NCBI GenBank assembly: GCA_963814585.1
Contig: CAWFDF010000010.1
Coordinates: forward strand, 96,001-160,000
From: an uncultured delta proteobacterium
GTDB lineage: Bacteria > Myxococcota > Myxococcia > Myxococcales > Anaeromyxobacteraceae
Direction: 5' to 3'
DNA: 64,000 bases
Of this stretch, positions 1,522-64,000 are shown one piece after another (within the stretch, counting starts at the first letter, position 1; every line of letters starts with the position of its first letter). Both the position numbers and the translations under genes were made by a program. A model generated the notes under the pieces. The model saw nothing but the letters and a program-made list of their open reading frames with translations, did not search any database and was not told where the DNA came from.

Positions 1522-2387
1522 GACGACACTCCAGGCTGCCGCGTCACCGTACGCGCCAGGTGGACCTCGAGGTCCACGCCGGCCGCCGTGCCCAGCGCCC
1601 GCGCCGCTCGCCGGGCCGCTGCCCGGCTGGCGAAGAGGCCGAAGACGGTGGGACCGCTCCCGGACATCAGCGTCGCGGTGGCGCCGGCGCCGGTGAGCTG
1701 CCACGAGAGTCGATCTAAGGCGGGATGCCGGGCCACGCAGGGAGGCTGGAGGTCGTTCCCCAGAAGGGTCGGCCGCCAGCGGCCTGGGCGGGGGAGCGGG
1801 GGGACGGGCCGAGCGCCGCGATCCTCGTCCAGCCAGCGGTAAGCGTCCGCTGCCCGGATGGCCAGGGCGGGAGCGCGTGGATAGAGGAGGACGAGGTGGA
1901 GCGGCGGCACGGTGGCGGGCCGGAGCCGCTCCCCCCGACCGGCCGCCCAGGCCGGCCCCGTCCCGAGGAAGAAGGGGACGTCGGAGCCGATCGAGAGCCC
2001 GAGCTCGGCGAGCGCCGCCGCGTCGTGGACGCGGAAGGCGCGGGCCAGGCAGCGCAGCACCGCCGCGGCGTCGGAGGAGCCGCCGCCCAGCCCGGCGGTG
2101 ACGGGGGTCCGCTTCTCGATCCGGATGGCGACGGCCCGGTCGGTGGGAAAGCGGCGCCGGAAGGCCTCGGCGGCGCGGGCCGCCAGGTTGCCGGCGCCGT
2201 CGAGCTCCCGGTGGCCGGGGACGCGGCAGGTGACCGGGCCGGCGCGGGCGCCCACCCGCACCTCCACGCCGTCGCCGAGATCGAGCGGCACCATCAGGCT
2301 GGCGAGATCGTGGTAGCCGTCCGGCCGCTGCGGACCGACCCGCAGGACGAGGTTGACCTTGGCCGGCGCAGTGGTGACGAGGCGCAC
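1473..2387 (-). CDS. ispE: 4-diphosphocytidyl-2-C-methyl-D-erythritol kinase
   Basis: APAKVNL, GYH, AGLGGGSSDAA (GHMP motif), GSDVPFF, MSGSGPTVF. Confidence 0.96.
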   Translation of the reverse strand: MRLVTTAPAKVNLVLRVGPQRPDGYHDLASLMVPLDLGDGVEVRVGARAGPVTCRVPGHRELDGAGNLAARAAEAFRRRFPTDRAVAIRIEKRTPVTAGLGGGSSDAAAVLRCLARAFRVHDAAALAELGLSIGSDVPFFLGTGPAWAAGRGERLRPATVPPLHLVLLYPRAPALAIRAADAYRWLDEDRGARPVPPLPRPGRWRPTLLGNDLQPPCVARHPALDRLSWQLTGAGATATLMSGSGPTVFGLFASRAAARRAARALGTAAGVDLEVHLARTVTRQPGVSSWRSPTSASTRSTRRS

Positions 2388-2434
2388 GGCCCTTCTCTAC
2401 CACCGACCCGGGGGCGGTCGACTAACATGGAGCG

Positions 2435-2977
2435 ATGGCGATCGCCCCCTACCGCACCGAGGTCCTCCTCTCCGCCGAGCAGATCCGATCCCGCATCGCC
2501 GAGCTGGGGCGTGAGATCGCCCGGCAGCACACCGGCCAGCGGCTCATCTGCGTGGGCGTGCTCAAGGGGAGCTTCATGTTCCTCGCTGACCTGGTGCGCG
2601 CCATCCCGCTGCCCGAGCTGGAAGTGGACTTCATCGGCGTCTCCTCCTACCAGGGCTCGGAGACCACCGGCGTGGTCCGCTTCAGCCACGACCTGGCCCG
2701 CTCCATCGAGGGGGAGGACGTGCTGCTGGTGGAGGACATCGTCGACACCGGCCTGACCGTCCGCTACCTGCTCGACAACCTCGCCACTCGCCACCCGCGC
2801 AGCCTGAAGGTGGCCGCGCTGCTGGAGAAGCCGGCCCGCTCCCGGGTGAAGGTCCCCATCGACTTCAAGGGCTTCACCATCGAGGACCGGTTCGTGGTCG
2901 GCTACGGGCTCGACTTCGACGGGCGCCTGCGGAACCTGCCTCACGTGGCGCTGCTGCACCTGGACCGGCCAGCGTAG
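2435..2977 (+). CDS. hpt: Hypoxanthine phosphoribosyltransferase
   Basis: VLKGSFMF, VSSY, VEDIVDTGLT, FVVGYGLD. Confidence 0.96.
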   Translation: MAIAPYRTEVLLSAEQIRSRIAELGREIARQHTGQRLICVGVLKGSFMFLADLVRAIPLPELEVDFIGVSSYQGSETTGVVRFSHDLARSIEGEDVLLVEDIVDTGLTVRYLLDNLATRHPRSLKVAALLEKPARSRVKVPIDFKGFTIEDRFVVGYGLDFDGRLRNLPHVALLHLDRPA

Positions 2978-3028
2978 CCCATCTCACGCGAGGTGATGGA
3001 CGCGGTGGTCCCCGCGTGCCGGGCCTGG

Positions 3029-4423
3029 CTACCTGGCCGCGGCCTTGAGCTCCTGCACCACGCTGGCGAGCGAGGCCTTGGCGTCGCCGAAGAGCATCGA
3101 GGTGTTGGCGCCGTGGAAGAGCTCGTTCTCGATGCCGGCGAAGCCCGGGTTCATCGACCGCTTCAGGACGATCACCTGCTTCGCCTGGTCCACGTCGAGG
3201 ATGGGCATCCCGTAGATGGGCGAGGACGGGTCGGTCCGGGCCGCCGGGTTGACCACGTCGTTGGCGCCGATCACCAGCGCCACGTCGGCGTTCTTGAACT
3301 GGGGGTTGATCTCCTCCAGCTCCTTGAGCTTGTCGTAGGGGATGTCGGCCTCGGCCAGCAGCACGTTCATGTGCCCGGGCATCCGCCCCGCCACCGGGTG
3401 GACGGCGTAGAGCACCTCGCCGCCGTTCCTCTCGACGAGCTGCGCCAGCTCCCGGACCTGGTGCTGCGCCTGGGCCACCGCCATGCCGTAGCCCGGCACC
3501 ACGATGACCAGGCGGGCGAAGCCGAGCTGGATGGCGGCGTCCTCCGCGGTGATGGAGCGAACCACCACCTCCCGCGCCGCCCGCTCCGAGGCCGGCGGCG
3601 GCGCGCCGAAGGCGCCGAAGAGGACGTTGCCGAAGGAGCGGTTCATGGCCCTCGACATGACCATCGAGAGGATGAAGCCCGAGGCCCCGTCGAGGGCGCC
3701 GGCGATGATGAGGACGTTGTTGCCGATGGCGAAGCCGGTGGCCGAGGAGGCCAGGCCGGCGTAGCTGTTGAGCAGCGAGATGACCACCGGCATGTCGGCG
3801 CCGCCGATGGGGAGGACCAGCGAGACGCCGAAGAGCAGCCCCAGGCCGACCATGGCGAAGAAGGCGGCCGGGTTGGCGGGGTCGACGAGGAGCCAGCCGA
3901 GGAGGCCGGCCGCCGCCGCCAGCATGGCCAGGGTGACCAGGTTCTGCCCCTTGAAGGTGAGCGGCCTGGAGGGGAGGAGCTCCTGCAGCTTGGCGAAGGC
4001 CATGAAGCTGCCGGTGATGGTGAGCGCGCCGAACAGGACCTCGAAGCCCAGCGCCGCCATCTGCCCGCGCCCCACCCGGGCGCCGTTCCCCCGGGACCAG
4101 AACTCGGCCACGCCCACCAGCGTGGCCGCCACCGCGCCGAACAGGTGCGAGATGGCGATCCGCTGCGGCATGGCGGTCATGGGCACGCGGGTGCCGAGCG
4201 GCCAGCCGATGAGCGTGCCAAGCGCCAGCCCGGCCAGGATCCACTCGTAGGTGACGATCTCGGCCTTCACCACCGTGCCGACGATGGCCACCAGCATGCC
4301 GAGGGCGGCCAGCTGCATGCCGCGGCGGGCCTGGTCGGGGATGGTGAGGCCGCGCAGCCCGAGGATGAAGAGGACCGAGGCGACCAGGTAGGCCGCCTCG
4401 GTGAAGAGGAGGCGGGTGGTCAC
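3029..4423 (-). CDS. pntB: NAD(P) transhydrogenase beta subunit
   Basis: MTAMPQ, IGGADMPVVISLLNSY, PGYGMAVAQAQH, HPVAGRMPGHMNVLLAEA, GANDVVNPAA. Confidence 0.97.
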   Translation of the reverse strand: MTTRLLFTEAAYLVASVLFILGLRGLTIPDQARRGMQLAALGMLVAIVGTVVKAEIVTYEWILAGLALGTLIGWPLGTRVPMTAMPQRIAISHLFGAVAATLVGVAEFWSRGNGARVGRGQMAALGFEVLFGALTITGSFMAFAKLQELLPSRPLTFKGQNLVTLAMLAAAAGLLGWLLVDPANPAAFFAMVGLGLLFGVSLVLPIGGADMPVVISLLNSYAGLASSATGFAIGNNVLIIAGALDGASGFILSMVMSRAMNRSFGNVLFGAFGAPPPASERAAREVVVRSITAEDAAIQLGFARLVIVVPGYGMAVAQAQHQVRELAQLVERNGGEVLYAVHPVAGRMPGHMNVLLAEADIPYDKLKELEEINPQFKNADVALVIGANDVVNPAARTDPSSPIYGMPILDVDQAKQVIVLKRSMNPGFAGIENELFHGANTSMLFGDAKASLASVVQELKAAAR

Positions 4424-4721: not shown

Positions 4722-5819
4722 TCAGCGCACCCTCCCCTGGTGGACCACCAGCATGGCGCCGGTGATCTCGTCGGCCGGGTCGAGCCTCGGCGTCCCGGCG
4801 CCGGCCGAGAGGTGCTGCAGCAGGGTGAGCACGTTGCGGCCGTACTGCTGGCTGGCGTGGAAGGGCAGGGTGGCGGCCAGCAGCACCGGCCCGAGGATGG
4901 TGACGCCGCCCGCCACCACCGTCTCGCCCGGCCGGGTGAGCTCGCAGTTGCCGCCGGTCTCGGCGGCCAGGTCCACGATCACCGAGCCCGGCTTCATGCC
5001 CTGGACCGCGGCGGCGCCGAGGAGCCGGGGTGCCGGCTTCCCGGGGATGGCGGCGGTGCAGATCACCAGGTCCATCTCCCTCACCTGGGCGGCGATGGCC
5101 GCCAGCACCCGGTCCTGATCGTCCCGGCCGAGCTCGGCGGCGTACCCGCCCTGGCCCTCGGCGGCGACCGCCGCGACCTCGACGAAGCTGGCGCCCAGCG
5201 ACTGGACCTGCTCCTTGACCGCCGGCCGCACGTCGAAGGCCGAGGTGATCGCGCCGAGCCGCCGCGCCGTGGCCAGCGCCTGCAGGCCGGCCACGCCGGC
5301 GCCGATCACGAAGACCCGGGCCGGCGCCAGGGTGCCGGCGGCCGTGGTCATCATGGGGAGGACGCGCGGCAGCGCCGAGGCGCCGAGCAGCACGGCCTTG
5401 TAGCCGGCCAGCGAGGCCTGCGACGAGAGGGCGTCCATGGCCTGGGCGCGGGAGATGCGGGGGACCAGCTCCATCGCCAGGGCGTCGACGCCGCGGGCCG
5501 CCAGCCGCTCGAGCAGCGGCCGCGACCGCGCCGGCTGCAGCAGGCCGACCAGCAGGGAGCCGGCCGGCAGCCGCTCGACCACCTCCGGCGAGGGGCCCTG
5601 CACGGCCACCACCACCTCGGCGCCCTCGAGCGCCTCGGCGGCCCCCGTCACCCGCGCGCCCGCCGCGGCGTAGGCGGCGTCGAGGAAGCCGGCCGCCTGG
5701 CCCGCCTCCCGCTCCACCCGGACCTCGTGGCCCCCCTTCACCAGCCGTGCGACATGGTCCGGCACCAGGGCCACTCGCCGCTCGCCCGGCGCGGATTCCT
5801 TCAGGACCGTGACGCGCAT
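4722..5819 (-). CDS. pntAa: NAD(P) transhydrogenase alpha subunit, NAD(H)-binding domain (PntAa)
   Basis: ERRVALVP, PRISRAQAMDALSSQ, GAGVAGLQA, VDLAAETGGNCE. Confidence 0.96.
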   Translation of the reverse strand: MRVTVLKESAPGERRVALVPDHVARLVKGGHEVRVEREAGQAAGFLDAAYAAAGARVTGAAEALEGAEVVVAVQGPSPEVVERLPAGSLLVGLLQPARSRPLLERLAARGVDALAMELVPRISRAQAMDALSSQASLAGYKAVLLGASALPRVLPMMTTAAGTLAPARVFVIGAGVAGLQALATARRLGAITSAFDVRPAVKEQVQSLGASFVEVAAVAAEGQGGYAAELGRDDQDRVLAAIAAQVREMDLVICTAAIPGKPAPRLLGAAAVQGMKPGSVIVDLAAETGGNCELTRPGETVVAGGVTILGPVLLAATLPFHASQQYGRNVLTLLQHLSAGAGTPRLDPADEITGAMLVVHQGRVR

Positions 5820-6023: not shown

Positions 6024-6524
6024 ATGAGCGTACCCGGGGGGGGCGCCGCTCATCCGGGCGGCGACGATCGGTTCGGCGTTCTCGACGCGGCGATGCGCCG
6101 TCACCAGCGGCGGGCCGACGCGCTCCTCGAGCTGCTGCACACGACGCAGGAGCTCTTCGGCTGCCTCTCCGACGACGCGCTGCGCTTCCTGGCGCGCGGC
6201 CTCGGCCTGCCGCTCTCGCGCGTCTACGGCGTCGCCAGCTTCTACAACCTCTTCACCTTCGCGCCGCGGGGCGAGCACACCTGCACGGTCTGCCTGGGGA
6301 CCGCCTGCTACGTGAAGGGGGCGGGCGACATCCTGGCCGGGCTCGAGTCGGCGTGCGGCGTGAGGCCTGGCGAGACCACTGCCGACGGCCGGCTCTCGGT
6401 GGTGGTAGCCCGCTGCATCGGCGCCTGCGGCGCGGCCCCGGCGGTGGCCTTCGACGAGGACCTGCGCGGCGGGCAGACCCGGGCCGGCGTCCTGGCCCGG
6501 GCGAAGGCGTGGACCGGGCCATGA
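6024..6524 (+). CDS. hoxE: Bidirectional hydrogenase subunit HoxE (NuoE-like 2Fe-2S protein)
   Basis: VYGVASFY, CTVCLGTACYVKG, RCIGACG; first gene of a hox cluster. Confidence 0.88.
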   Translation: MSVPGGGAAHPGGDDRFGVLDAAMRRHQRRADALLELLHTTQELFGCLSDDALRFLARGLGLPLSRVYGVASFYNLFTFAPRGEHTCTVCLGTACYVKGAGDILAGLESACGVRPGETTADGRLSVVVARCIGACGAAPAVAFDEDLRGGQTRAGVLARAKAWTGP

Positions 6525-54541: not shown

Positions 54542-55375
54542 ATGTCGCTCCTCTCAGCCATCCTGCTCGGCATCATCCAGGCGGCCACCGAGTTCCTCCC
54601 GGTCTCCTCCACCGCCCACCTGCTGATCTTCGGTGAGCTGATGGGCCAGTCGCTGGAGGAGCCGCACTTCCGCGCCTTCGTGGCCATCATCCAGTCCGGC
54701 ACGGCGCTGGCGGTGATCGTCTACTTCCGCCACGACATCTGGAAGATCCTGCGCGGCTCCATCGCCGCGCTGGCGCGGGGCACGCCGCTGGCCACGCCGG
54801 AGGCCCGGCTCGGCTGGCTCATCGTCCTCGGCACCATCCCGGCCGCGGTGCTGGGCAAGCTGCTCGAGCGCCGCATCGAGGCGCTCGGCAACTGGGTCAT
54901 CGCCGGATCGCTGGTCTTCCTCGGCGTGGTGCTGTTCGTCGCCGAGCGGCTGGCGCGCCACGTCCGGTCGGTCGAGTCGGTCGGCGTGAAGGACGCCGTG
55001 CTGGTGGGCCTGGCGCAGGCCTGGGCCCTCATCCCCGGATCGTCGCGCTCCGGCAGCACGCTCACCATGGGGATGCTGCTCGGCTTCACGCGGGAGGCGG
55101 CCGCCCGCTTCTCCTTCCTGCTCTCCGTCCCCATCATCATCGCGGCGGGCGCCTACAAGCTCTGGAAGGAGCTGCCCCGGCTGGCTGGCGCGCCCGAATG
55201 GCAGCAGGCCACCGCGGTGGCCACCCTGGTCTCCTTCGCCGCCGGCTACCTGGTCATCGGCTGGCTGCTCGGCTGGCTCCGGACCCGCCCGACCTACCTC
55301 TTCGTCGCCTGGCGCATCGCCGCCGGCCTCGCCGTCGCCATCCTCATCTCGGTGGGCGTGCTCCCGGCGTCATGA
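54542..55375 (+). CDS. uppP: Undecaprenyl-diphosphatase
   Basis: [29 protein letters not shown]. Confidence 0.95.
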
Positions 55376-55962
55376 ACCTCGCCGAGCTGGAGGCCGCCCT
55401 GGCGGCCTGGCGGCCTCGGCCCTCACCCATCGAGCGGGTCCCGGCCCGGCACTGGCCGGAGGGGGGCTTCGGCGAGGCGGCCGTGCTGGTGCCGCTCCAC
55501 GAGGAGGACGGGGTGGCCAGCGTGCTCCTGACGCTGCGGCGCACCGACCTGCGCCACCACGCCGGGCAGGTGAGCTTCCCGGGTGGCCGGCTCGATCCCG
55601 GCGAGGCGTCGCTGGACGCGGCGCTGCGCGAGGCGCGGGAGGAGGTCGGGCTGGACCCGTCGAGGGCGCGCATCCTGGGGCGGCTCTCGGAGACCGTCGT
55701 GCTCCAGTCCGCCAATCGCTTGACGCCGTGGGTGGCTTCGGTGCCATATCCCTTCCCATACGCGGCGTCGCCGCGAGAGGTGGAGGCCATCTGGCACGTC
55801 CCGATTCCGGCGCTGCTGGCGCCCGGAGTCCACCGCACGCAGGTTCACCGGTTCTACGGGATCGACGTGGACGTTCACTACTACGAGGTCGAGGGCCGGA
55901 CGATCTGGGGCGCCACGGCCCGGGTCCTCTCCGAGCTGATCGAGGTCTGGAGCGCGGGATGA
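55372..55962 (+). CDS. Nudix hydrolase, CoA pyrophosphatase-like
   Basis: [33 protein letters not shown]. Confidence 0.92.
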
Positions 55963-57041
55963 AGATCTTTCCGGTGATCATGGCGGGCGGGTCGGGGACG
56001 CGGTTCTGGCCGATGTCTCGCCGGGCCAGGCCGAAGCAGTTCCTGCCGCTGGCGGGCGACCAGCCGCTGCTGACCGCCACCGTCCGCCGCCTGCCGCCGC
56101 TGGCGAAGCCGGCCGACACCTACGTGGTCTGCGGGCCGGCCCACGCCGCCGCCGCCAAGAAGCTGGTGAGGGAGCTGCCGGCGAGGAACTTCATCGTCGA
56201 GCCGTGCGCGAGGAACACCGCGCCGTGCGTGGGGCTGGCCGCCCTCCACGTGGCGGCACGCCAGAAGCACGGCATCGTCGCCATGCTGCCGGCCGATCAC
56301 CACATCGCCCGCCCCGAGGCCTTCCGCGAGGCCATCGCCGAGGCGGCCCGGCTGGCCGAGCAGGGGCACATCGTCACCATCGGGATCCGGCCCCACGCCC
56401 CGGAGACCGGCTACGGCTACCTGAAGGTTGGCGCCAGGCTGCCCGGCAAGGCCAAGGGACGCAGCCAGGCCCACAAGGTGGAGCGGTTCGTCGAGAAGCC
56501 CGACGTGGTGACCGCGGCCCGCTACCTCGCCGACGGCCACTACCTGTGGAACTCGGGCATCTTCGTCTTCCGCGCCGACGTCATCCTCGAGGAGATCCGG
56601 CGCGTCATGCCGGTGCTGGGTGAGCAGCTGGATGCCATCCAGCAGTCGATCGGCACCCCCGGCTACCAGCGGACCCTGGCGCGCGTCTTCCCCGACTGCC
56701 CCTCCATCTCCATCGACTACGGCGTCATGGAGAAGAGCCAGAAGATCGTGGTGGTGCCGGCCGACTTCGGCTGGAGCGACGTGGGCAGCTTCGCGGCGCT
56801 CCCCGAGGTGCGCCAGACCGACCACCTCGGCAACGTGGCCGAGGGCGACGCGCTGGTGATCGACGGCCGCAACAACGTGGTCATCGCCACCGGCGCCCGG
56901 CCGGTGGCGGTGGTGGGGCTCGACGACGTGGTGGTGGTCGACGCCGGCGACGCCATCCTGGTCTGCCGGAAGTCGCGGGCCCAGGACGTCCGCAAGGCGG
57001 TCGACGAGCTGGCGCGGCGCGGCCGCGACGAGGTGCTCTAG
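55959..57041 (+). CDS. manC: Mannose-1-phosphate guanylyltransferase
   Basis: [13 protein letters not shown]...PKQF, EP..RNTAP, PETGYGY, FVEKP, SIDY.VMEK, WSDVG. Confidence 0.94.
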
Positions 57042-58411
57042 TGTCCGGGGTGAATCCGGTCGTCTTCCGGGAGTACGACATCCGCGGCGTGGCGGGCGTC
57101 GACCTCACCGAGGAGACCGTGGGGCTGGTGGCGCGCGCGCTGGGCACCAGGGTCCGCGCCGCCGGCGGCCAGGTGGTGGTGGTGGGGCGGGACGTCCGGC
57201 TCTCCAGCCCGGCTTTCCACGGCCAGGTGGTGGCGGGGCTCACCGCCACCGGCTGCGACGTGGTCGACCTCGGCGTGGTCCCGACGCCCCTGGTCTACTT
57301 CGCGGCGCAGACCATGGCCGTGGACGGGCTCTGCATGATCACCGGCTCGCACAACCCGGCCGACTACAACGGGATGAAGATCGGGGTGGGCCCGACCACG
57401 CTCTACGGCGAGGCCATCCAGGAGATCCTGCGGATGGTGCAGCAGGGCCGGTTCGCCAGCGGGCAGGGGAGGGTGACGGCGCACGACATCGTCGCCCCTT
57501 ACCAGGACCGCGTGGTGGGGAACATCCAGCTCGGTCGCCGCCGGCTCAAGGTGGTCATCGACGCCGGCAACGGCACCGGCGGCGTCGCCGTGCCCATCTT
57601 CCAGCGGCTCGGCGTCGAGGTGGTCCCGCTCTTCATCGAGCCGGACGGCCGCTTCCCCAACCACCACCCCGACCCCACCGTGGAGAAGAACCTGGAGCCG
57701 CTGAAGCGAGCGGTGCTGGAGACGCGCGCCGACCTCGGCATCGCCTACGACGGCGACTCGGACCGGGTGGGCGCCGTCGACGAGAAGGGGCAGGTGCTGT
57801 GGGGCGACCAGCTCATGATCCTCTTCGCCCGCGCCATCCTCGCCGAGGTGCCGGGGGCGGCCATCGTCGCCGAGGTGAAGTGCTCCTTCACCCTCTACGA
57901 CGACATCGCCAGGCGCGGCGGCCGCGGCATCATGTGGAAGGCCGGCCACTCCCTCATCAAGGCCAAGATGAAGGAGGAGCACGCCGAGCTGGCCGGCGAG
58001 ATGAGCGGCCACATCTTCTTCGGGAACCGCTGGCTCGGCTTCGACGACGGCATCTACTCGTCGGCGCGCCTCGTCGAGCTGGTCAGCCGCACCGACCGGC
58101 CCCTGTCGACCCTGCTCGGTGACGTGCCGCGGACCTTCAGCACGCCGGAGCTGCGGGTCGACTGCCGGGAGGAGATCAAGTTCGAGGTGGTGCGCCGCGC
58201 CCAGGAGTTCTTCAAGCAGGGCTACCAGGCCATCACCGTCGATGGCGTGCGGGTGGTCTTCCCCGACGGCTGGGGGCTGGTGCGCGCCTCCAACACGCAG
58301 CCCATCCTGGTGCTCCGCTTCGAGGCCGTCACCGAGCCGCGGCTGGCGGAGATCCGGAGGCTGGTCGAGGATCGGGTCGGCGCCATCATCGCGGAGCTCG
58401 GCGGTCCGTGA
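57041..58411 (+). CDS. Phosphomannomutase/phosphoglucomutase
   Basis: FREYDIRG, TGSHNP, DGDSDR, GEMSGH, RASNTQP. Confidence 0.96.
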   Translation: MSGVNPVVFREYDIRGVAGVDLTEETVGLVARALGTRVRAAGGQVVVVGRDVRLSSPAFHGQVVAGLTATGCDVVDLGVVPTPLVYFAAQTMAVDGLCMITGSHNPADYNGMKIGVGPTTLYGEAIQEILRMVQQGRFASGQGRVTAHDIVAPYQDRVVGNIQLGRRRLKVVIDAGNGTGGVAVPIFQRLGVEVVPLFIEPDGRFPNHHPDPTVEKNLEPLKRAVLETRADLGIAYDGDSDRVGAVDEKGQVLWGDQLMILFARAILAEVPGAAIVAEVKCSFTLYDDIARRGGRGIMWKAGHSLIKAKMKEEHAELAGEMSGHIFFGNRWLGFDDGIYSSARLVELVSRTDRPLSTLLGDVPRTFSTPELRVDCREEIKFEVVRRAQEFFKQGYQAITVDGVRVVFPDGWGLVRASNTQPILVLRFEAVTEPRLAEIRRLVEDRVGAIIAELGGP

Positions 58412-59391
58412 CGGCCCGGCTCGCCCTCGGCGTCGACCTCGGCGGGACCAACGCCCGCGCGGCGCTGGTCGATCCGGCGAGCGGCGTGGTGGTGGCGGCC
58501 CACAAGGTGCGCCACGTCGAGCGGTCTCCGGAGGCGGTGGTGGCGACCATCGCCGCCGCGGTCCGCGAGGTGGCCAGGGCGGCCGGTGTCGAGGTGGCCG
58601 GGCTGGGGGCGGCCGGCGTCGGCGTGGCCGGCCAGTGCCTGGGCAGCACCGGCACCGTCCTCAACGCCCCCAACCTGGGCTGGCGCGACGTCTCGCTCGG
58701 CGAGCCGCTCCGCGCCGCGCTCGGGCTGGAGGTGCGGGTGGTCAACGACCTCTCGGCCGCGGCGTGGGGCGAGCTGCGCTTCGGGGCGGCGCGCGGTGTC
58801 GACGACGCGGTGCTGGTCTTCGTCGGCTCGGGCGTCGGCTCGGGCCTCATCCTCGGGGGCCGGCTCCACGAGGGTGGGCGGGGCGTGGCCGGGGAGCTCG
58901 GGCACATCAAGGTGGCGCCGCGCGGCGCGACGCCGCGGCGCTGCGGCTGCGGCGAGTGGGGTTGCCTCGAGGCCTACGCCGGCGGGATGAACCTGGCGGC
59001 GCGGCTGCGCGACGAGGTGGCCGCCGGGAAGGCCGGCGGCGTGCTGGCGGCGGCCGGCGGCGAGCCCTCCGCGCTGTCGGCCTCGGCGGTGGAGGCGGCC
59101 TACGCCGCCGGCGACCCCTACGCCCGGGAGCTCTGGGCCGAGGTCGGCGAGCTGATCGGCACCGCCTGCGCCAACGTGGTGACGCTGCTCAACCCGCTGA
59201 GGCTCGTCCTCGGCGGCGGCGTGCTGCTGGGCTGCGGCAACCTGGAGCGGATCGTGCGCGCGCACGTCGCGGATCGCGCGCTGCGAGCGGCCCGGAGCGG
59301 ACTCGAGGTGCGGCGCTCCCAGCTCGGCGACGACGCCGGCGTGGTGGGCGCGGCGCTCCTCGGCGCGGCGCGACACTCGCACCAGAGGTGA
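58408..59391 (+). CDS. ROK family sugar kinase (glucokinase-like)
   Basis: GVDLGGT, NDL.AA, GSGVGSG, GELGH, CGCG..GCLE. Confidence 0.94.
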   Translation: MTARLALGVDLGGTNARAALVDPASGVVVAAHKVRHVERSPEAVVATIAAAVREVARAAGVEVAGLGAAGVGVAGQCLGSTGTVLNAPNLGWRDVSLGEPLRAALGLEVRVVNDLSAAAWGELRFGAARGVDDAVLVFVGSGVGSGLILGGRLHEGGRGVAGELGHIKVAPRGATPRRCGCGEWGCLEAYAGGMNLAARLRDEVAAGKAGGVLAAAGGEPSALSASAVEAAYAAGDPYARELWAEVGELIGTACANVVTLLNPLRLVLGGGVLLGCGNLERIVRAHVADRALRAARSGLEVRRSQLGDDAGVVGAALLGAARHSHQR

Positions 59392-59507
59392 GATCGACCG
59401 CCCGATCCGATCACGGTCCGTGAAATCTGGCATCCGGAGGCGCTGGACCCATCCGGATCGTGCTGAGGGGAGCATGGATCGAGTGATCGATTTTCTCTTC
59501 GGCTTCC

Positions 59508-59536
59508 TTGACGGGATCGATCGCGCTTTGTAACGT
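59508..59536 (+). promoter_or_regulatory. Near-consensus sigma70 promoter
   Basis: TTGACG (59508-59513), exactly 17 nt, TAACGT (59531-59536). Confidence 0.65.
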
Positions 59537-59598
59537 GCATCCACATTGTCCATTCGTGAGTCACTCATGAAGTGAATGGACGTTCCGAGGAGGGAACT

Positions 59599-59664
59599 AT
59601 GGCTGCCAAGAAGAAGGCCGTGAAGAAGGTTGCGAAGAAGAAGACCGCCAAGAAGAAGAAGTAG
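59599..59664 (+). CDS. 21-aa Lys/Ala-rich basic micropeptide MAAKKKAVKKVAKKKTAKKKK
   Basis: GAGGAGG Shine-Dalgarno 5 nt upstream, ATG..TAG, promoter before and terminator after; below the ORF-track cutoff. Confidence 0.7.
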   Translation: MAAKKKAVKKVAKKKTAKKKK

Positions 59665-59691
59665 CGATCGGTTCAGCAGCAGAGTGGTGCC

Positions 59692-59722
59692 GCGGCCGCC
59701 TTCGGGCGGCCGCAGCTTTTTT
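59692..59722 (+). terminator. Intrinsic terminator
   Basis: GCGGCCGCC-TTCG-GGCGGCCGC (9-bp perfect stem, UUCG loop) followed by AGC and TTTTTT. Confidence 0.85.
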
Positions 59723-59731
59723 GGGAGCCGC

Positions 59732-61183
59732 ATGTCGCTGACGGCGGTCGAGCTGGAGCTGGTGGTGGGGGAGCTGCAGGCGCTGCGCGGCGCGCGCGTC
59801 GACGCCGTGCGCGTCCACGCCGAGCGCGCCCTGACGCTGGAGCTGCACGGGCGCAGCGAGGCCGCGCTCCTGCTCCTCTGCGCCGAGCCCGAGGTGACCC
59901 GGCTCCACGTCAGCACCGTGCGCCCGGTCCAGCCCGCCAGCCCCTTCGCCTGGCAGGCACCGCTCCGCCAGGCGCTGGAGGGATCGCGGCTCGAGGCGCT
60001 GGAGCTGCAGGCCGGGGATCGGGTGGTGACGCTGCGCTTCGAGCGGGCCGGCGGCCGGGTCCAGCTGGTGGCGGAGCTGACCGGCCGCCACGGCAACCTC
60101 CTCCTCGTCGACGCCGGGGGCGTGGTCCGCTTCATGGCGTCGCGCGTCGCCGAGCCGGGGCGGCGCCTGGCCCCGGGCCTGCCCTGGACGCCGCCGGCGG
60201 CGCCGCGAGGTGAGCGGAGGGCCGGACCGCGCTTCGAGCCGGTGGCCGGCGCTTCCTTCCCCTGGTCCCTGGCGGTCGAGCGCCGCTACGCGGCGATCGA
60301 GGCGGAGCGGACGCTGGTCGAGGCGCGCCGGCGGCTGCGCGAGCCCTTGCGCGCGGCGCTGGCCCGGTCGAGGCGGGCGCTGGAGAGGCTGTCGGACGAG
60401 GCGGCCCGGGTGCCGGCGGCCGAGGCCGACCGGCGCGCCGGCGACCTGCTCAAGGCCAACCTCCAGGCCGTGACGCGCGGAGCCCGGGAGGTGACGCTGA
60501 CCGAGTGGACCGCCGACGGACCGGGCGAGGTGCGGGTGGCCCTCGACCCGGCGCTCACCCCGCGCCAGAACATGGAGCGCTTCTACCGGCGCTTCAAGCG
60601 GATCGCCGAGAGCGCGGCCCGGGTCGAGGCGCGGGCCGGCGAGGTCCGCGCCAGGCTCGAGGCCGTCGGGGCGCTGCTGGAGCGCGTCGACGGTGCGCCC
60701 CTGGAGGAGCTGCCGGCCATCGAGCGCGAGGCGAGGCGGCTGGCGGCCGGGCCACGGCCGGCGGCGAGGCCGCGCCGGCCGCGGGAGCAGGCCTCGCTGC
60801 CCTACCGGACCTTCCGCTCGGTGGCCGGCCTGGCCCTGCTGGTGGGGCGCGGCGCCGCCGAGAACGACCAGCTCACGCGGCGCGTGGCGCGCGGCAACGA
60901 CCTCTGGCTCCACGCTCGCGGGCTGGCCGGCGCCCACGTGATCATCCGCCTCGGCGGCCGGGAGGCCGACCAGGAGTCCCTCCTCGACGCCGCCCACCTG
61001 GCGGTCCACTTCTCCGACGCCCGCGGGGAGCCGCAGGTGGAGGTGGCCTGCACGCGGGCCAAGTACGTCCGCAAGGGGCGCGGCGCGGCCCCCGGCGCCG
61101 TCACCTACAGCCAGGAGCGGATGCTCCACCTCCGCACCGAGCCGGCGCGGCTGGCCCGGTTGCTGGCCGAGGAGGCGCCTTGA
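59732..61183 (+). CDS. rqcH: NFACT family protein (RqcH/Rqc2 homolog)
   Basis: GDRV, ELTGRHGNLLLVD (NFACT-N), coiled coil with LDP, VGR.AAEND.LT...DLWLHARG..GAHV (NFACT-R). Confidence 0.88.
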   Translation: MSLTAVELELVVGELQALRGARVDAVRVHAERALTLELHGRSEAALLLLCAEPEVTRLHVSTVRPVQPASPFAWQAPLRQALEGSRLEALELQAGDRVVTLRFERAGGRVQLVAELTGRHGNLLLVDAGGVVRFMASRVAEPGRRLAPGLPWTPPAAPRGERRAGPRFEPVAGASFPWSLAVERRYAAIEAERTLVEARRRLREPLRAALARSRRALERLSDEAARVPAAEADRRAGDLLKANLQAVTRGAREVTLTEWTADGPGEVRVALDPALTPRQNMERFYRRFKRIAESAARVEARAGEVRARLEAVGALLERVDGAPLEELPAIEREARRLAAGPRPAARPRRPREQASLPYRTFRSVAGLALLVGRGAAENDQLTRRVARGNDLWLHARGLAGAHVIIRLGGREADQESLLDAAHLAVHFSDARGEPQVEVACTRAKYVRKGRGAAPGAVTYSQERMLHLRTEPARLARLLAEEAP

Positions 61184-61218
61184 CGGTGGACCGGGCCGCC
61201 GCCCACGATGGCGGGACC

Positions 61219-61977
61219 GTGGACGCGCGCGAGGTGCACCGGCAGCTCCAGCTCTTCGACGGCCGCCACCTCGGCCGGGAGGAGCGGGTGGCGGGGGCGC
61301 GCCGGATCGCCGACGAGATGGCCGGCTCGCTGGGGGAGCCGGTCAAGCTCACCGTGCACGACAACCGCTCCACCATGGTCTCCTTCCGGCGTGTCGGCGG
61401 CGGCCTGCACGTTCGCCTGCACCACATGTTCCTCGAGGCGCCCGGCGAGGTGCTCCGGGCCCTGGCCGCCTTCGCCGGCACCGCCCGGGGCGCGACGGCG
61501 AGGCGCCGCGAGGCGAGCCGGCGCATCGACCGGTTCGTCCGCGACCGGCGGGACCGGATCGGCGCGCCGAGGGTGGGGCGGCTGCAGCCGCGCGGGCGGG
61601 CTCACGATCTCGGCGCCCTCTTCGACCGGCTCAACGCCAGCGAGTTCGGCGGCGCGGTGCAGGCGCGCATCGGATGGGGCGCGGTGCGGCCGGGGCGGCG
61701 CCGGCGCACCGTCAAGACCGGCGTCTACCTGCACGAGGCCCGGGCCATCCGCATCCACCCGACGCTGGACCGCCCCGAGGTGCCCGAGTTCTACGTGGCG
61801 GCGGTGGTGTTCCACGAGATGCTCCACCAGGTGGTGCCGGTGCACGAGCGCAACGGCCGGCGGGTGGTCCACGGCGCCGAGTTCCGGCGCCGGGAGCGGG
61901 CCTACGCCGACTACCAGCGGTCGCGCGACTGGGAGAAGGCCCACCTCGGCCTGCTGCTCTCCTCGCCGGATCGCTGA
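61219..61977 (+). CDS. SprT/YgjP-like zinc metalloprotease-fold protein
   Basis: IRIHP.LD, VFHEMLHQ (HEXXH), HG.EF...E; an alternative TTG start at 61180 overlaps the rqcH stop. Confidence 0.8.
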   Translation: MDAREVHRQLQLFDGRHLGREERVAGARRIADEMAGSLGEPVKLTVHDNRSTMVSFRRVGGGLHVRLHHMFLEAPGEVLRALAAFAGTARGATARRREASRRIDRFVRDRRDRIGAPRVGRLQPRGRAHDLGALFDRLNASEFGGAVQARIGWGAVRPGRRRRTVKTGVYLHEARAIRIHPTLDRPEVPEFYVAAVVFHEMLHQVVPVHERNGRRVVHGAEFRRRERAYADYQRSRDWEKAHLGLLLSSPDR

Positions 61978-62052
61978 GCGTTCCGGCCGCGGGGAGCGGG
62001 TCCCCCGGGCCAGGTGCGGGCGTGGCCCCGGGGGGCATGGCATCATGCCTCG

Positions 62053-64000
62053 ATGCGACGCTGCGCCCCGCTCCTCCTGATCGCCGCCGCCGGGTGCCTG
62101 ACGGCCCGCGGCACGGCCGACCAGCCGGTGATCACGACGGTCGAGCTGCGCGGCGTCCGGAGCGTCGACCGCTCGCAGCTCCGGGAGAAGCTGGCGACCC
62201 GCGCTTCCAGCTGTTTCATCACCTGCGACGTGGCCCACCTCGACCGGCACGAGCTGGCCGATGACGCGCTCCGCATCGCCGCCTTCTACAAGGAGCGCGG
62301 CCGCTACCTGACCGGGGTGCTGGAGCCGGAGGTCACCGACGACGGCGAGGGGCGGGTGCGGGTGCGGTTCGTGGTGAACGAGGGGCCGGAGGCGAAGGTG
62401 ACGGGGCTCACCACGCCCGGGCTGGAGGCGGTGCCCGAGGCGGCCCGCGCCCTGGTCCGCCCCGCGCTGAGGGTCGGCTCCGTCTTCACCATGGAAGCCT
62501 ACGACGGGATGCGCACGCAGCTGCTCGGCGCGCTCCGCTCCACCGGCTGGCCGCTGGCCGAGGTGAACCAGCGGGCACGCGTCCACCCGGACCTCCAGCG
62601 GGTCGACGTCACCTACGCCATCTCCCCGGGCCCCCGGCTCAGGTTCGGAGCGCTGCAGGTGACCGGCACGGCCCAGGTGCCGCCCGGCAAGGTGACGGAG
62701 CAGGCGACCCTGGAGCTGGAGCGAGGCGCCCTCTTCGACGAGCGCGCCCTGGTGCGCGCCCAGACCCGGGTCTTCAACCTGGGCGTCTTCGCCAGCGCCC
62801 GCATCGCCACCGGCCACCCCGACCTCGAGCGCGGGGAGGTGCCGCTGGTGATGAGCGTCCAGGAGGCTCCCTTCCAGACCCTGCGGGTCGGGCCGGGGAT
62901 CGCCTTCCAGACCACCCGCTGGGAGGCGCAAGGCCTGGCCACCTACACCCACCGCAACTTCCTCGGCGACCTGCGCAAGCTCCAGGTCCACCTCCAGGCC
63001 GGCTACGCCTGGATCCCCACGCCGTTCAGCCCCGACCAGCAGGGCCTGGTCGGCCGGCTGACGGCCTCCCTCGACCAGCCGGGCACCTTCGGCCCGCGGG
63101 TCGACCTCGCCACCCAGGTGGGCGGGGAGCGATCCATCGAGCAAGGCTACGCCTACTGGGCGGTGCGGGCCCGGGTGGGGACGCCGCTGCGGCTCGCCAG
63201 CCGGTGGAGGCTCCTGCCCACCTACAACATCGAGAACTACTGGGTCGACGCCGGGTTCGACCCGGCCGACGGATCCACGCCGCCGCAGCTCCAGAACTGC
63301 AACGCCAGCCGGATCTGCCTGCTCTCCTACTTCGAGCAGCGGATCACCTGGGACGGGCGCGACGACCCGGTCGACACGCACCGCGGCCTGGCGGCGGGGT
63401 TGACGGTGCAGGAGGGGTTCCGGATCGGCTCCAACGGCTACGACTACCTGCGCGTGTCGCCCGAGGTGAGCTTCTACGTCCCGCTCGGCTGGCGGACCGT
63501 GCTGGCCGGCCGCCTCCGCGTCGGCGGGCTGGTGCCCATCAACGAGACCGGCCCCGCCTCCATCGTCGCCCTCTTCACCTCCGGCGGCTCCACCACCGTC
63601 CGCGGCTACGGCACGCAGCGGCTCTCGCCCATGGTCCTGCAGGACGACCTGTGGGTGCCGACCGGCGGGAACGGGGTGGTGGAGCTCTCCCTGGAGCTCC
63701 GCCAGAAGCTGAGCGGGGCGCTCGGCGCGGTCTTCTTCGTGGACGTGGGCAACGTCTCGGAAGCCTCTGGCCAGCAGAAGGAGTGGCTGAATGCGCTCAC
63801 CCTGTCGAAGCTCCAACCCACGGCCGGGCTGGGCCTGCGCTACCGCACGCCGTTCGGGCCGGTCCGGATCGACGTCGGGTTCCGCCTGCCCACCGACCTC
63901 CGCCCCGACATCCCCTTCGAGGATCGCTTCCCGGCCGTTCCCGGCAGCTCCGGCCACAGCGAGCCGCTGATGGCGTTCCACCTGACCCTGGGCGAGGCCT
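62053..64000 (+). CDS. BamA/TamA (Omp85) family outer membrane protein, last codons beyond the window
   Basis: Lipoprotein-like MRRCAPLLLIAAAGC, POTRA-like segments, SGG..TVRGYG, GLRYRTPFGPVRIDVG, ends ..HLTLGEA. Confidence 0.9.
   Translation, partial: MRRCAPLLLIAAAGCLTARGTADQPVITTVELRGVRSVDRSQLREKLATRASSCFITCDVAHLDRHELADDALRIAAFYKERGRYLTGVLEPEVTDDGEGRVRVRFVVNEGPEAKVTGLTTPGLEAVPEAARALVRPALRVGSVFTMEAYDGMRTQLLGALRSTGWPLAEVNQRARVHPDLQRVDVTYAISPGPRLRFGALQVTGTAQVPPGKVTEQATLELERGALFDERALVRAQTRVFNLGVFASARIATGHPDLERGEVPLVMSVQEAPFQTLRVGPGIAFQTTRWEAQGLATYTHRNFLGDLRKLQVHLQAGYAWIPTPFSPDQQGLVGRLTASLDQPGTFGPRVDLATQVGGERSIEQGYAYWAVRARVGTPLRLASRWRLLPTYNIENYWVDAGFDPADGSTPPQLQNCNASRICLLSYFEQRITWDGRDDPVDTHRGLAAGLTVQEGFRIGSNGYDYLRVSPEVSFYVPLGWRTVLAGRLRVGGLVPINETGPASIVALFTSGGSTTVRGYGTQRLSPMVLQDDLWVPTGGNGVVELSLELRQKLSGALGAVFFVDVGNVSEASGQQKEWLNALTLSKLQPTAGLGLRYRTPFGPVRIDVGFRLPTDLRPDIPFEDRFPAVPGSSGHSEPLMAFHLTLGEA

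Follow-up and report, generated by a model that had tools for sequence, protein, structure and literature searches.

A short Lys/Ala-rich gene directly upstream of rqcH in Myxococcota and its possible role as a free, H1-tail-like polycation

Results

The window, by which we mean the whole 64-kb stretch of DNA that was analysed, carries a compact unit on its forward strand (59508–59722) between two larger genes of the same orientation. Upstream lies a ROK-family sugar kinase gene (58408–59391; Pfam ROK, 3e-60) and downstream an rqcH/NFACT gene (59732–61183), whose product matches Pfam NFACT_N (6e-47) and NFACT-R and, below the cut-off of that model, NCBIfam RqcH_arch. The reading frame that follows on the same strand (61189–61977) resembles SprT-like metalloproteases, with 23.7 bits against a Pfam cut-off of 25.6; an SprT-like gene after rqcH is common to some genomes of three families (f1, f3 and f6). 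An earlier note, made from the sequence of the window, had described a promoter, a Shine-Dalgarno (SD) sequence, a 21-aa Lys-rich open reading frame (ORF) and a UUCG hairpin with a U6 tail in this interval, and inspection of the 64-kb window located every one of these parts at the positions given there.

The putative sigma-70-type promoter spans 59508–59536 (−35 at 59508–59513, 17-nt spacer, −10 at 59531–59536). It agrees with the consensus at five of six −35 and three of six −10 positions, and because this total of 8/12 lies below the 9/12 threshold of the promoter scanner, it was not listed by that program. Among 59 orthologous loci the first five −35 bases of the best promoter-like site are identical in 50, with spacers of 16–18 nt, as counted without a shuffled control. 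Transcription probably starts at the A at 59543, which lies 7 nt past the −10 hexamer and forms an invariant column in 15/15 aligned leaders. The 5′ leader then offers a hairpin at 59548–59581 with an 8-bp stem (59548–59555 paired with 59574–59581) and a variable loop; all eight pairs are kept in each of the 15 leaders, with three one-sided and zero two-sided changes. This hairpin is confined to part of the peptide family and is likely to act as an mRNA stabiliser. A second hairpin (59582–59597, 5-bp stem) presents the SD sequence (59587–59593) in its loop. Three of its five pairs are broken or gapped in one or two of the 15 sequences, and an SD-in-loop hairpin occurs in three genera without being kept in all; a translational regulator could bind there, or the hairpin could serve autoregulation. 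The SD sequence itself is found 4–9 nt upstream of the ATG in 56/59 orthologous loci.

The ORF (59599–59664) encodes 21 aa, 12 of them Lys, and its product would have a net charge of +12, a mass of ∼2.2 kDa without Met, a pI of 11 and tryptic fragments of at most four residues throughout. When the 4.3-Mb genome was screened for all ORFs of 10–80 aa with a Lys content of 30% or more, it was the sole ATG-started one to exceed 50%. The earlier note had pointed out that all Lys codons are AAG; the count is correct (12/12) but carries no information, because AAG makes up 99.1% of the Lys codons in the long ORFs of this genome (18257/18417), and we therefore did not accept it as evidence of expression. 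With a start codon further upstream in the same frame, located within the 5′ hairpin, the ORF would reach 30 aa (59572–59664). Several relatives have an in-frame ATG at this position, and the upstream start could give rise to a minor longer form of the peptide.

Transcription would end at an intrinsic terminator (59692–59722) that begins 27 nt past the stop codon and consists of a 9-bp G+C stem with a UUCG loop (59692–59713), 3 nt and six U residues (59717–59722). It is the sole terminator-like site within 55000–64000 and is, taken by itself, not above chance, since shuffles of the same range yield 1.4 ± 1.3 such sites. Across the orthologous loci, a hairpin of −18 kcal/mol or lower followed by a T-rich tail lies downstream of the peptide ORF in 55/59 cases. 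The ATG of rqcH stands 9 nt past the U tail, so that in the window the remaining space is insufficient for a promoter of its own.

Database searches with the window unit gave no match in Rfam at E values up to 1 and, for the 21-aa peptide, none in Pfam, NCBIfam or the PDB; with a 79-aa orthologue as query the PDB returned a single histone H3 match at chance level (E 0.96). The Pfam model of the chlamydial histone H1-like protein Hc2 (HC2, cut-off 40) was passed by two of the 12 scanned orthologues, those of 200 and 202 aa (55.6 and 46.4), and missed by the other ten, while NCBIfam cut-offs were passed by 0/12. The two matches lend support to the H1-like reading proposed earlier; being of low complexity, matches of this type show composition and not descent. 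Lys/Ala tails on longer proteins are common in the window's own genome, for example on two long proteins from other contigs (loci L156 and L157) that match HC2 below the cut-off. The earlier description of the unit as unannotated holds for the 21-aa product, which is absent from a collection of 15 billion proteins, but not for the 30-aa version, which gene callers chose in JGI/IMG although its upstream GTG start looks wrong. Exact look-ups of orthologues in the same collection likewise found 0/10 and then 0/7 further sequences, perhaps because gene callers overlooked them or because the collection filters out very short or low-complexity proteins. Four of 15 listed metatranscriptome runs were searched, and three runs from three studies each contained one contig close to the leader and ORF, spanning 59564–59663 (one difference), 59516–59684 (four) and 59569–59731 (six and gaps). 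These contigs carry no ends, strand or level, were viewed without a silent control stretch, and one starts inside the promoter spacer; they are a weak hint that the window unit is transcribed. Most other pieces recovered are unrelated Lys-rich sequence.

We then compared the locus across the phylum. In 59 genomes from several classes of Myxococcota, rqcH is directly preceded by a promoter-like site, an SD sequence, a Lys/Ala ORF and a terminator, and within the genus nucleotide conservation of the whole unit is very high. The earlier note had set a conserved SD/ATG/Lys-rich frame in relatives as the test of its proposal, and this is the pattern that was found. In the own family, a DNA search of 40 relatives gave 22 loci that contain the region, the window genome included, and all 22 have the ORF (18–41 aa), the SD sequence, a promoter-like site, the terminator and rqcH downstream. 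At the level of the order, a search anchored on rqcH found the Lys/Ala ORF directly before rqcH in 10 of the 12 genomes with visible upstream DNA, a denominator that leaves out two further rqcH matches, which lacked upstream DNA or were set aside. For the phylum, we took 60 of 107 NFACT-R matches from 121 genomes, favouring full-length frames and genomes not yet sampled, and found the ORF upstream of rqcH in 28/60 loci. It is present in families f1 (4/4), f6 (12/15), f10 (1/1), f14 (7/8), f16 (2/2) and f20 (2/2), of which f14, f16 and f20 belong to classes other than that of the window genome; it was not found in f12 (0/12), f24 (0/4), f18 (0/3), f19 (0/3) and six families represented by a single genome. 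In an independent scan, named GTDB records yielded 80 rqcH loci, 73 of them with enough upstream DNA, and the ORF in 49/73. It was present in 42/42 loci of the closest group (Anaeromyxobacter, Anaeromyxobacteraceae and similar) including the cultured strains A. terrae SG22 and A. soli SG29, and in 0/9 loci titled as, or related to, Planctomycetota, these nine being all that defines the range outside the phylum. The four sets overlap, so that their counts are not additive, and kin are not independent observations. On these comparative grounds the ORF at 59599–59664 is confirmed as a real, overlooked gene. The proposal of a minimal micropeptide fits the window, where 21 aa are encoded, but in the family as a whole, which reaches ∼200 aa, this peptide ranks by sequence comparison among the shortest forms of a myxobacterial Lys/Ala-rich protein.

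The 59 orthologous loci comprise 53 distinct coding sequences of 18–202 aa. Lys accounts for 39% of their residues, Ala for 29%, Thr for 13%, Arg for 6% and Pro for 5%, values inflated by the choice of ORFs according to Lys content. In the 2655 residues of the basic core we counted two Glu and two Cys but no Asp, Asn, Gln, Met, Phe, Trp, Tyr, Leu, Ile or His, and Val is the sole large hydrophobic residue. The near-total exclusion of acidic, aromatic and large hydrophobic residues points to selection on a polycation. An N-terminal folded domain is absent in 59/59 orthologues, and TAG, TAA and TGA all occur as stop codons. From its coding pattern, the set looks like a family of translated polycations in which repeat expansion makes the length drift. 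Two 23-aa orthologues of family f16 (L118 and L119) have a Cys at position 3, the sole Cys in the set.

A homologue search with a 77-aa orthologue as query scored 8000 candidates and returned one protein, the 131-aa ‘conserved hypothetical protein’ of Myxococcus xanthus DK1622 (ABF86753.1/Q1CYU6), whose last 79 residues are identical to the ORF of our locus L086. In the ESM Atlas the nearest cluster, with 76 members that come mostly from Myxococcota, is labelled ‘excinuclease ABC subunit A’. This enzyme, UvrA, is a large ABC-type ATPase. The M. xanthus protein has 79 aa and no Pfam family, and we rejected its assignment as UvrA; judging by the sequences, the name is an annotation error on 60–80-aa Lys/Ala proteins that has spread through the family. 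The same label stands in the supplementary tables of PMC6791715 for MXAN_6302 (MXAN_RS30530), a 240-nt gene on the reverse strand. The gap to MXAN_6301 (1458 nt), which it precedes, measures 97 nt and that to a divergently oriented beta-glucosidase gene 355 nt; both gaps are identical to those of L086. In a second data set MXAN_6302 begins at an upstream start codon and is entered as a hypothetical protein of 131 aa. It is the positional orthologue of the window unit, alike in promoter type, SD sequence, start, terminator and downstream rqcH, and differs from the window peptide in its length of 79 aa and a short neutral C-terminal tail.

In the same supplementary tables MXAN_6302 mRNA stands at 6197 and 6653 RPKM at 0 h, a measure that favours short stable RNAs, which is about twice the level of the EF-Tu genes (2365–3241 RPKM) and compares with 63–334 RPKM for the IHF genes. 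The abundance proposed in the earlier note is thus borne out at the mRNA level, for this orthologue. After 6 h of starvation the transcript was down by 16–18% (5202–5487 RPKM), remained high through 24 h and reached 1107–1668 RPKM at 96 h, a 4- to 6-fold fall overall. According to PMC6791715 most translation genes fall by 6 h; we compared MXAN_6302 with this profile through the two EF-Tu genes, both of which dropped 3.5- to 5-fold to 570–718 RPKM. MXAN_6301 (rqcH) was at 38–46 RPKM at 0 h, a step of 135- to 175-fold from MXAN_6302, and stayed flat at 30–74 RPKM, resembling its neighbours; such values look like the floor of the data set and do not prove read-through. That rqcH is flat while MXAN_6302 falls 4- to 6-fold counts against a demonstrated coupling by read-through. 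In the proteomics and start-site supplement tables searched, MXAN_6302 and its neighbours are alike absent, and among open-licence PMC and bioRxiv main texts we found no paper that names MXAN_6302 by locus tag or accession.

The earlier note had taken the interval between ROK and rqcH as the anchor for finding relatives. The conserved anchor proved to be rqcH: ROK is kept as upstream neighbour in part of the peptide family only, and we rejected it as an anchor, since the upstream neighbours fall into many unrelated groups (ROK, ExbB/TolQ-like, beta-glucosidase, acyl-CoA dehydrogenase and others, named partly by eye). The gene after rqcH likewise varies among many unrelated groups. The peptide–rqcH pair is kept in 11 families and more than one class while both flanking genes change. 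The two genes are not bound to each other: two genomes (97% and 89% complete) have a 27-aa version with its promoter, SD sequence and hairpin although a protein search and a family search with two queries detected no rqcH in them, and in three others versions of 21, 22 and 211 aa are unlinked, rqcH lying elsewhere among other neighbours. Of 19 genomes probed, 12 gave no stand-alone Lys/Ala ORF with the start pattern, two of these 12 being own-family genomes with fragmented assemblies; the peptide gene may thus be dispensable or too divergent there. At loci that lack the peptide gene, rqcH often starts at or just past the stop codon of another gene (by eye), as would be typical of a gene relying on borrowed promoters. 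Some close relatives (L008 and L013) have insertions of ∼70–180 nt between terminator and rqcH. At three further loci (L034, L036 and L132) a −10-like hexamer lies ∼6–7 nt before the rqcH ATG (by eye), which suggests leaderless rqcH promoters in some lineages; these would weaken an explanation by read-through there. In the accessible parts of the literature on rqcH neighbourhoods and on myxobacterial H1-like proteins, we found no description of the peptide–rqcH pair.

Discussion

We consider it fairly probable that the gene encodes an abundant, free and disordered polycation resembling the tail of histone H1, which would act on nucleic-acid backbones, probably in the nucleoid, and that rqcH lives on read-through from this unit. 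The locus would then be a strongly transcribed monocistronic gene whose product amounts to the C-terminal tail of H1 on its own. Its housekeeping promoter would yield a short mRNA with a stabilising 5′ hairpin and a strong SD sequence, ribosomes would make a 20-residue peptide of charge +12 from it, and the terminator would stop most transcripts. Given its composition and the analogous proteins discussed below, the peptide most likely coats DNA or RNA. It would sit on phosphate backbones without sequence preference and neutralise or bridge them, with nucleoid compaction as the most likely effect and possibly binding of RNA or polyphosphate as well. Selection would act on charge density and small spacer residues only, so that expanding repeats would let the length drift between 18 and 200 aa. 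In the window genome the promoterless rqcH would depend for its expression on the few transcripts that pass the terminator, and this dependence would be enough to keep the two genes adjacent. One point against this reading is that a 20-mer has little length for bridging DNA stably.

By analogy, the peptide most likely works like Chlamydia Hc2, the H1-like protein of Burkholderia and the tail of AlgP. Hc2 (HctB; PF07382, NF038052) also consists of stand-alone Lys/Ala/Thr/Val repeats, and its length varies with the number of Lys-rich repeats (PMC2848022). Its short Lys/Ala-rich repeats devoid of acidic and aromatic residues have their counterpart in the basic core of the peptide family with its two Glu. 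Hc2 has 165–237 aa built of 36-aa elements (PMC2848022) in contrast to 21 aa in the window and 18–202 aa in the family; at its curated cut-offs we obtained no match for the window peptide and, for orthologues, 2/12 with Pfam and 0/12 with NF038052. The peptide family also differs from Hc2 in its tie to rqcH and in being highest in growth rather than in a condensation stage. The Burkholderia/Bordetella H1-like protein (NF038053) and the tails of Pseudomonas AlgP and PhaF are likewise disordered and basic with Lys/Ala/Pro repeats. Matches to NF038053 were weak (up to 42.8 bits against a cut-off of 80), and AlgP and PhaF, as described in PMC11894788, combine a folded N-terminal domain with a long KPAA-type tail, whereas the peptide family has no such domain and the window form is far shorter. 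As curated cut-offs and length fail, we do not file the window peptide as a member of the Hc2 or AlgP type. Closer in lineage are the basic N-terminal peptide of M. xanthus FrzCD and the basic tail of CarD, short disordered stretches that bind DNA without sequence preference: PMC5716589 describes a 21-residue basic stretch of FrzCD as needed for DNA binding, and PMC8156234 reports that the DNA-binding domain of CarD can be exchanged for the disordered C-terminal region of H1. Both are tails of larger proteins, whereas the window peptide would be a free product with its own promoter and terminator.

The linkage to rqcH keeps alive the idea that the peptide works on ribosomes or in ribosome quality control, where it would bind rRNA, 50S–peptidyl-tRNA complexes or tRNA as a partner of RqcH; the adjacency would then be explained by joint work. 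Small basic peptides are known to occupy ribosome pockets. The small ribosomal proteins bS22, bTHX, bL37 and eS32 are of fixed length and Arg-rich; they share with the window peptide a size of 20–45 aa, a very basic character and the tendency to be missed by gene callers, while the peptide family is built of Lys/Ala, is elastic in length and, for the window peptide, gives no Pfam or PDB match. An elevenfold variation in length is ill-suited to a fixed pocket, and the 79-aa orthologue has its chance-level PDB match only. The pair outlasts the links on both sides in 11 families and more than one class, and in the tables of PMC6791715 MXAN_6302 mRNA lies within the range of translation genes; the same tables put the ratio of MXAN_6302 to rqcH mRNA above 100:1 and show MXAN_6302 declining by 16–18% at 6 h, against 3.5- to 5-fold for EF-Tu. 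The partnership is also loose in both directions, for the 27-aa version persists in two genomes without detected rqcH, the 21-, 22- and 211-aa versions are unlinked in three genomes with rqcH elsewhere, and rqcH lacks the partner in 32/60 phylum loci and in 9/9 loci of the Planctomycetota type. We therefore judge this role rather unlikely, and the same holds for the combined proposal of a major chromatin- or ribosome-associated, elastic poly-Lys/Ala tail (down to 18–21 aa) that is functionally tied to ribosome quality control, for example by shielding or marking split 50S–peptidyl-tRNA complexes or by setting the dose of RqcH. Lower still we rank polyphosphate or another storage polyanion as main ligand, with the peptide shaping condensates instead of the chromosome: the chemistry is that of the Pseudomonas AlgP repeat tail, PMC11894788 places polyphosphate granules within the M. 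xanthus nucleoid and the MXAN_6302 transcript remains abundant during the first 24 h of starvation, but the AlgP-type N-terminal domain is absent and there were zero polyphosphate genes among the neighbours examined. Such a ligand is compatible with the polycation reading that we favour.

The arrangement of a short ORF, a terminator 27 nt on and a promoterless rqcH 9 nt past the U tail is the textbook layout of a leader peptide, in which ribosomes stalled at Lys runs would open an antiterminator and switch rqcH on, and the mRNA level in the M. xanthus tables drops more than 100-fold across the terminator. Equilibrium folding argues against it: with the ribosome placed at any of five positions, the modelled terminator keeps a probability of 0.95 or more in 18 of 21 loci (0.96–1.00 in the window), and the three exceptional loci differ from one another. 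A conserved antiterminator was not found among the 21 loci modelled, the ORF reaches 200 aa and is not restricted to genomes with detected rqcH, and selection concerns amino-acid chemistry and not one codon. An attenuator of this kind is thus very unlikely. Least credible of all is a non-coding RNA with an incidental ORF. It would suit the very high nucleotide conservation inside the genus and the conserved leader hairpins, but Rfam returned nothing, the SD–ATG spacing is kept in 56/59 loci, the frame stays open for 18–202 codons with three different stop codons, and acidic codons, one step away from AAG, are nearly excluded inside the basic core.

The free polycation that we favour has a highly transcribed, mis-annotated orthologue in a tractable organism together with an unexplained, class-spanning link to rqcH, and in this lies the value of the locus. 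The family of MXAN_6302 has been hidden by a wrong name and, in one annotation, a wrong start, and its short forms are invisible to trypsin-based proteomics, the window peptide giving fragments of at most four residues. The natural length series of 18–200 aa offers a direct test of the minimum working H1-type tail, and the link to rqcH poses a testable question on how ribosome quality control is dosed in myxobacteria. With MXAN_6302 a model bacterium offers a concrete, knock-out-ready candidate for an abundant factor of the nucleoid or the ribosome; if this is true, an unrecognised major chromatin- or ribosome-associated protein would be encoded by one of the most highly transcribed genes of myxobacteria.
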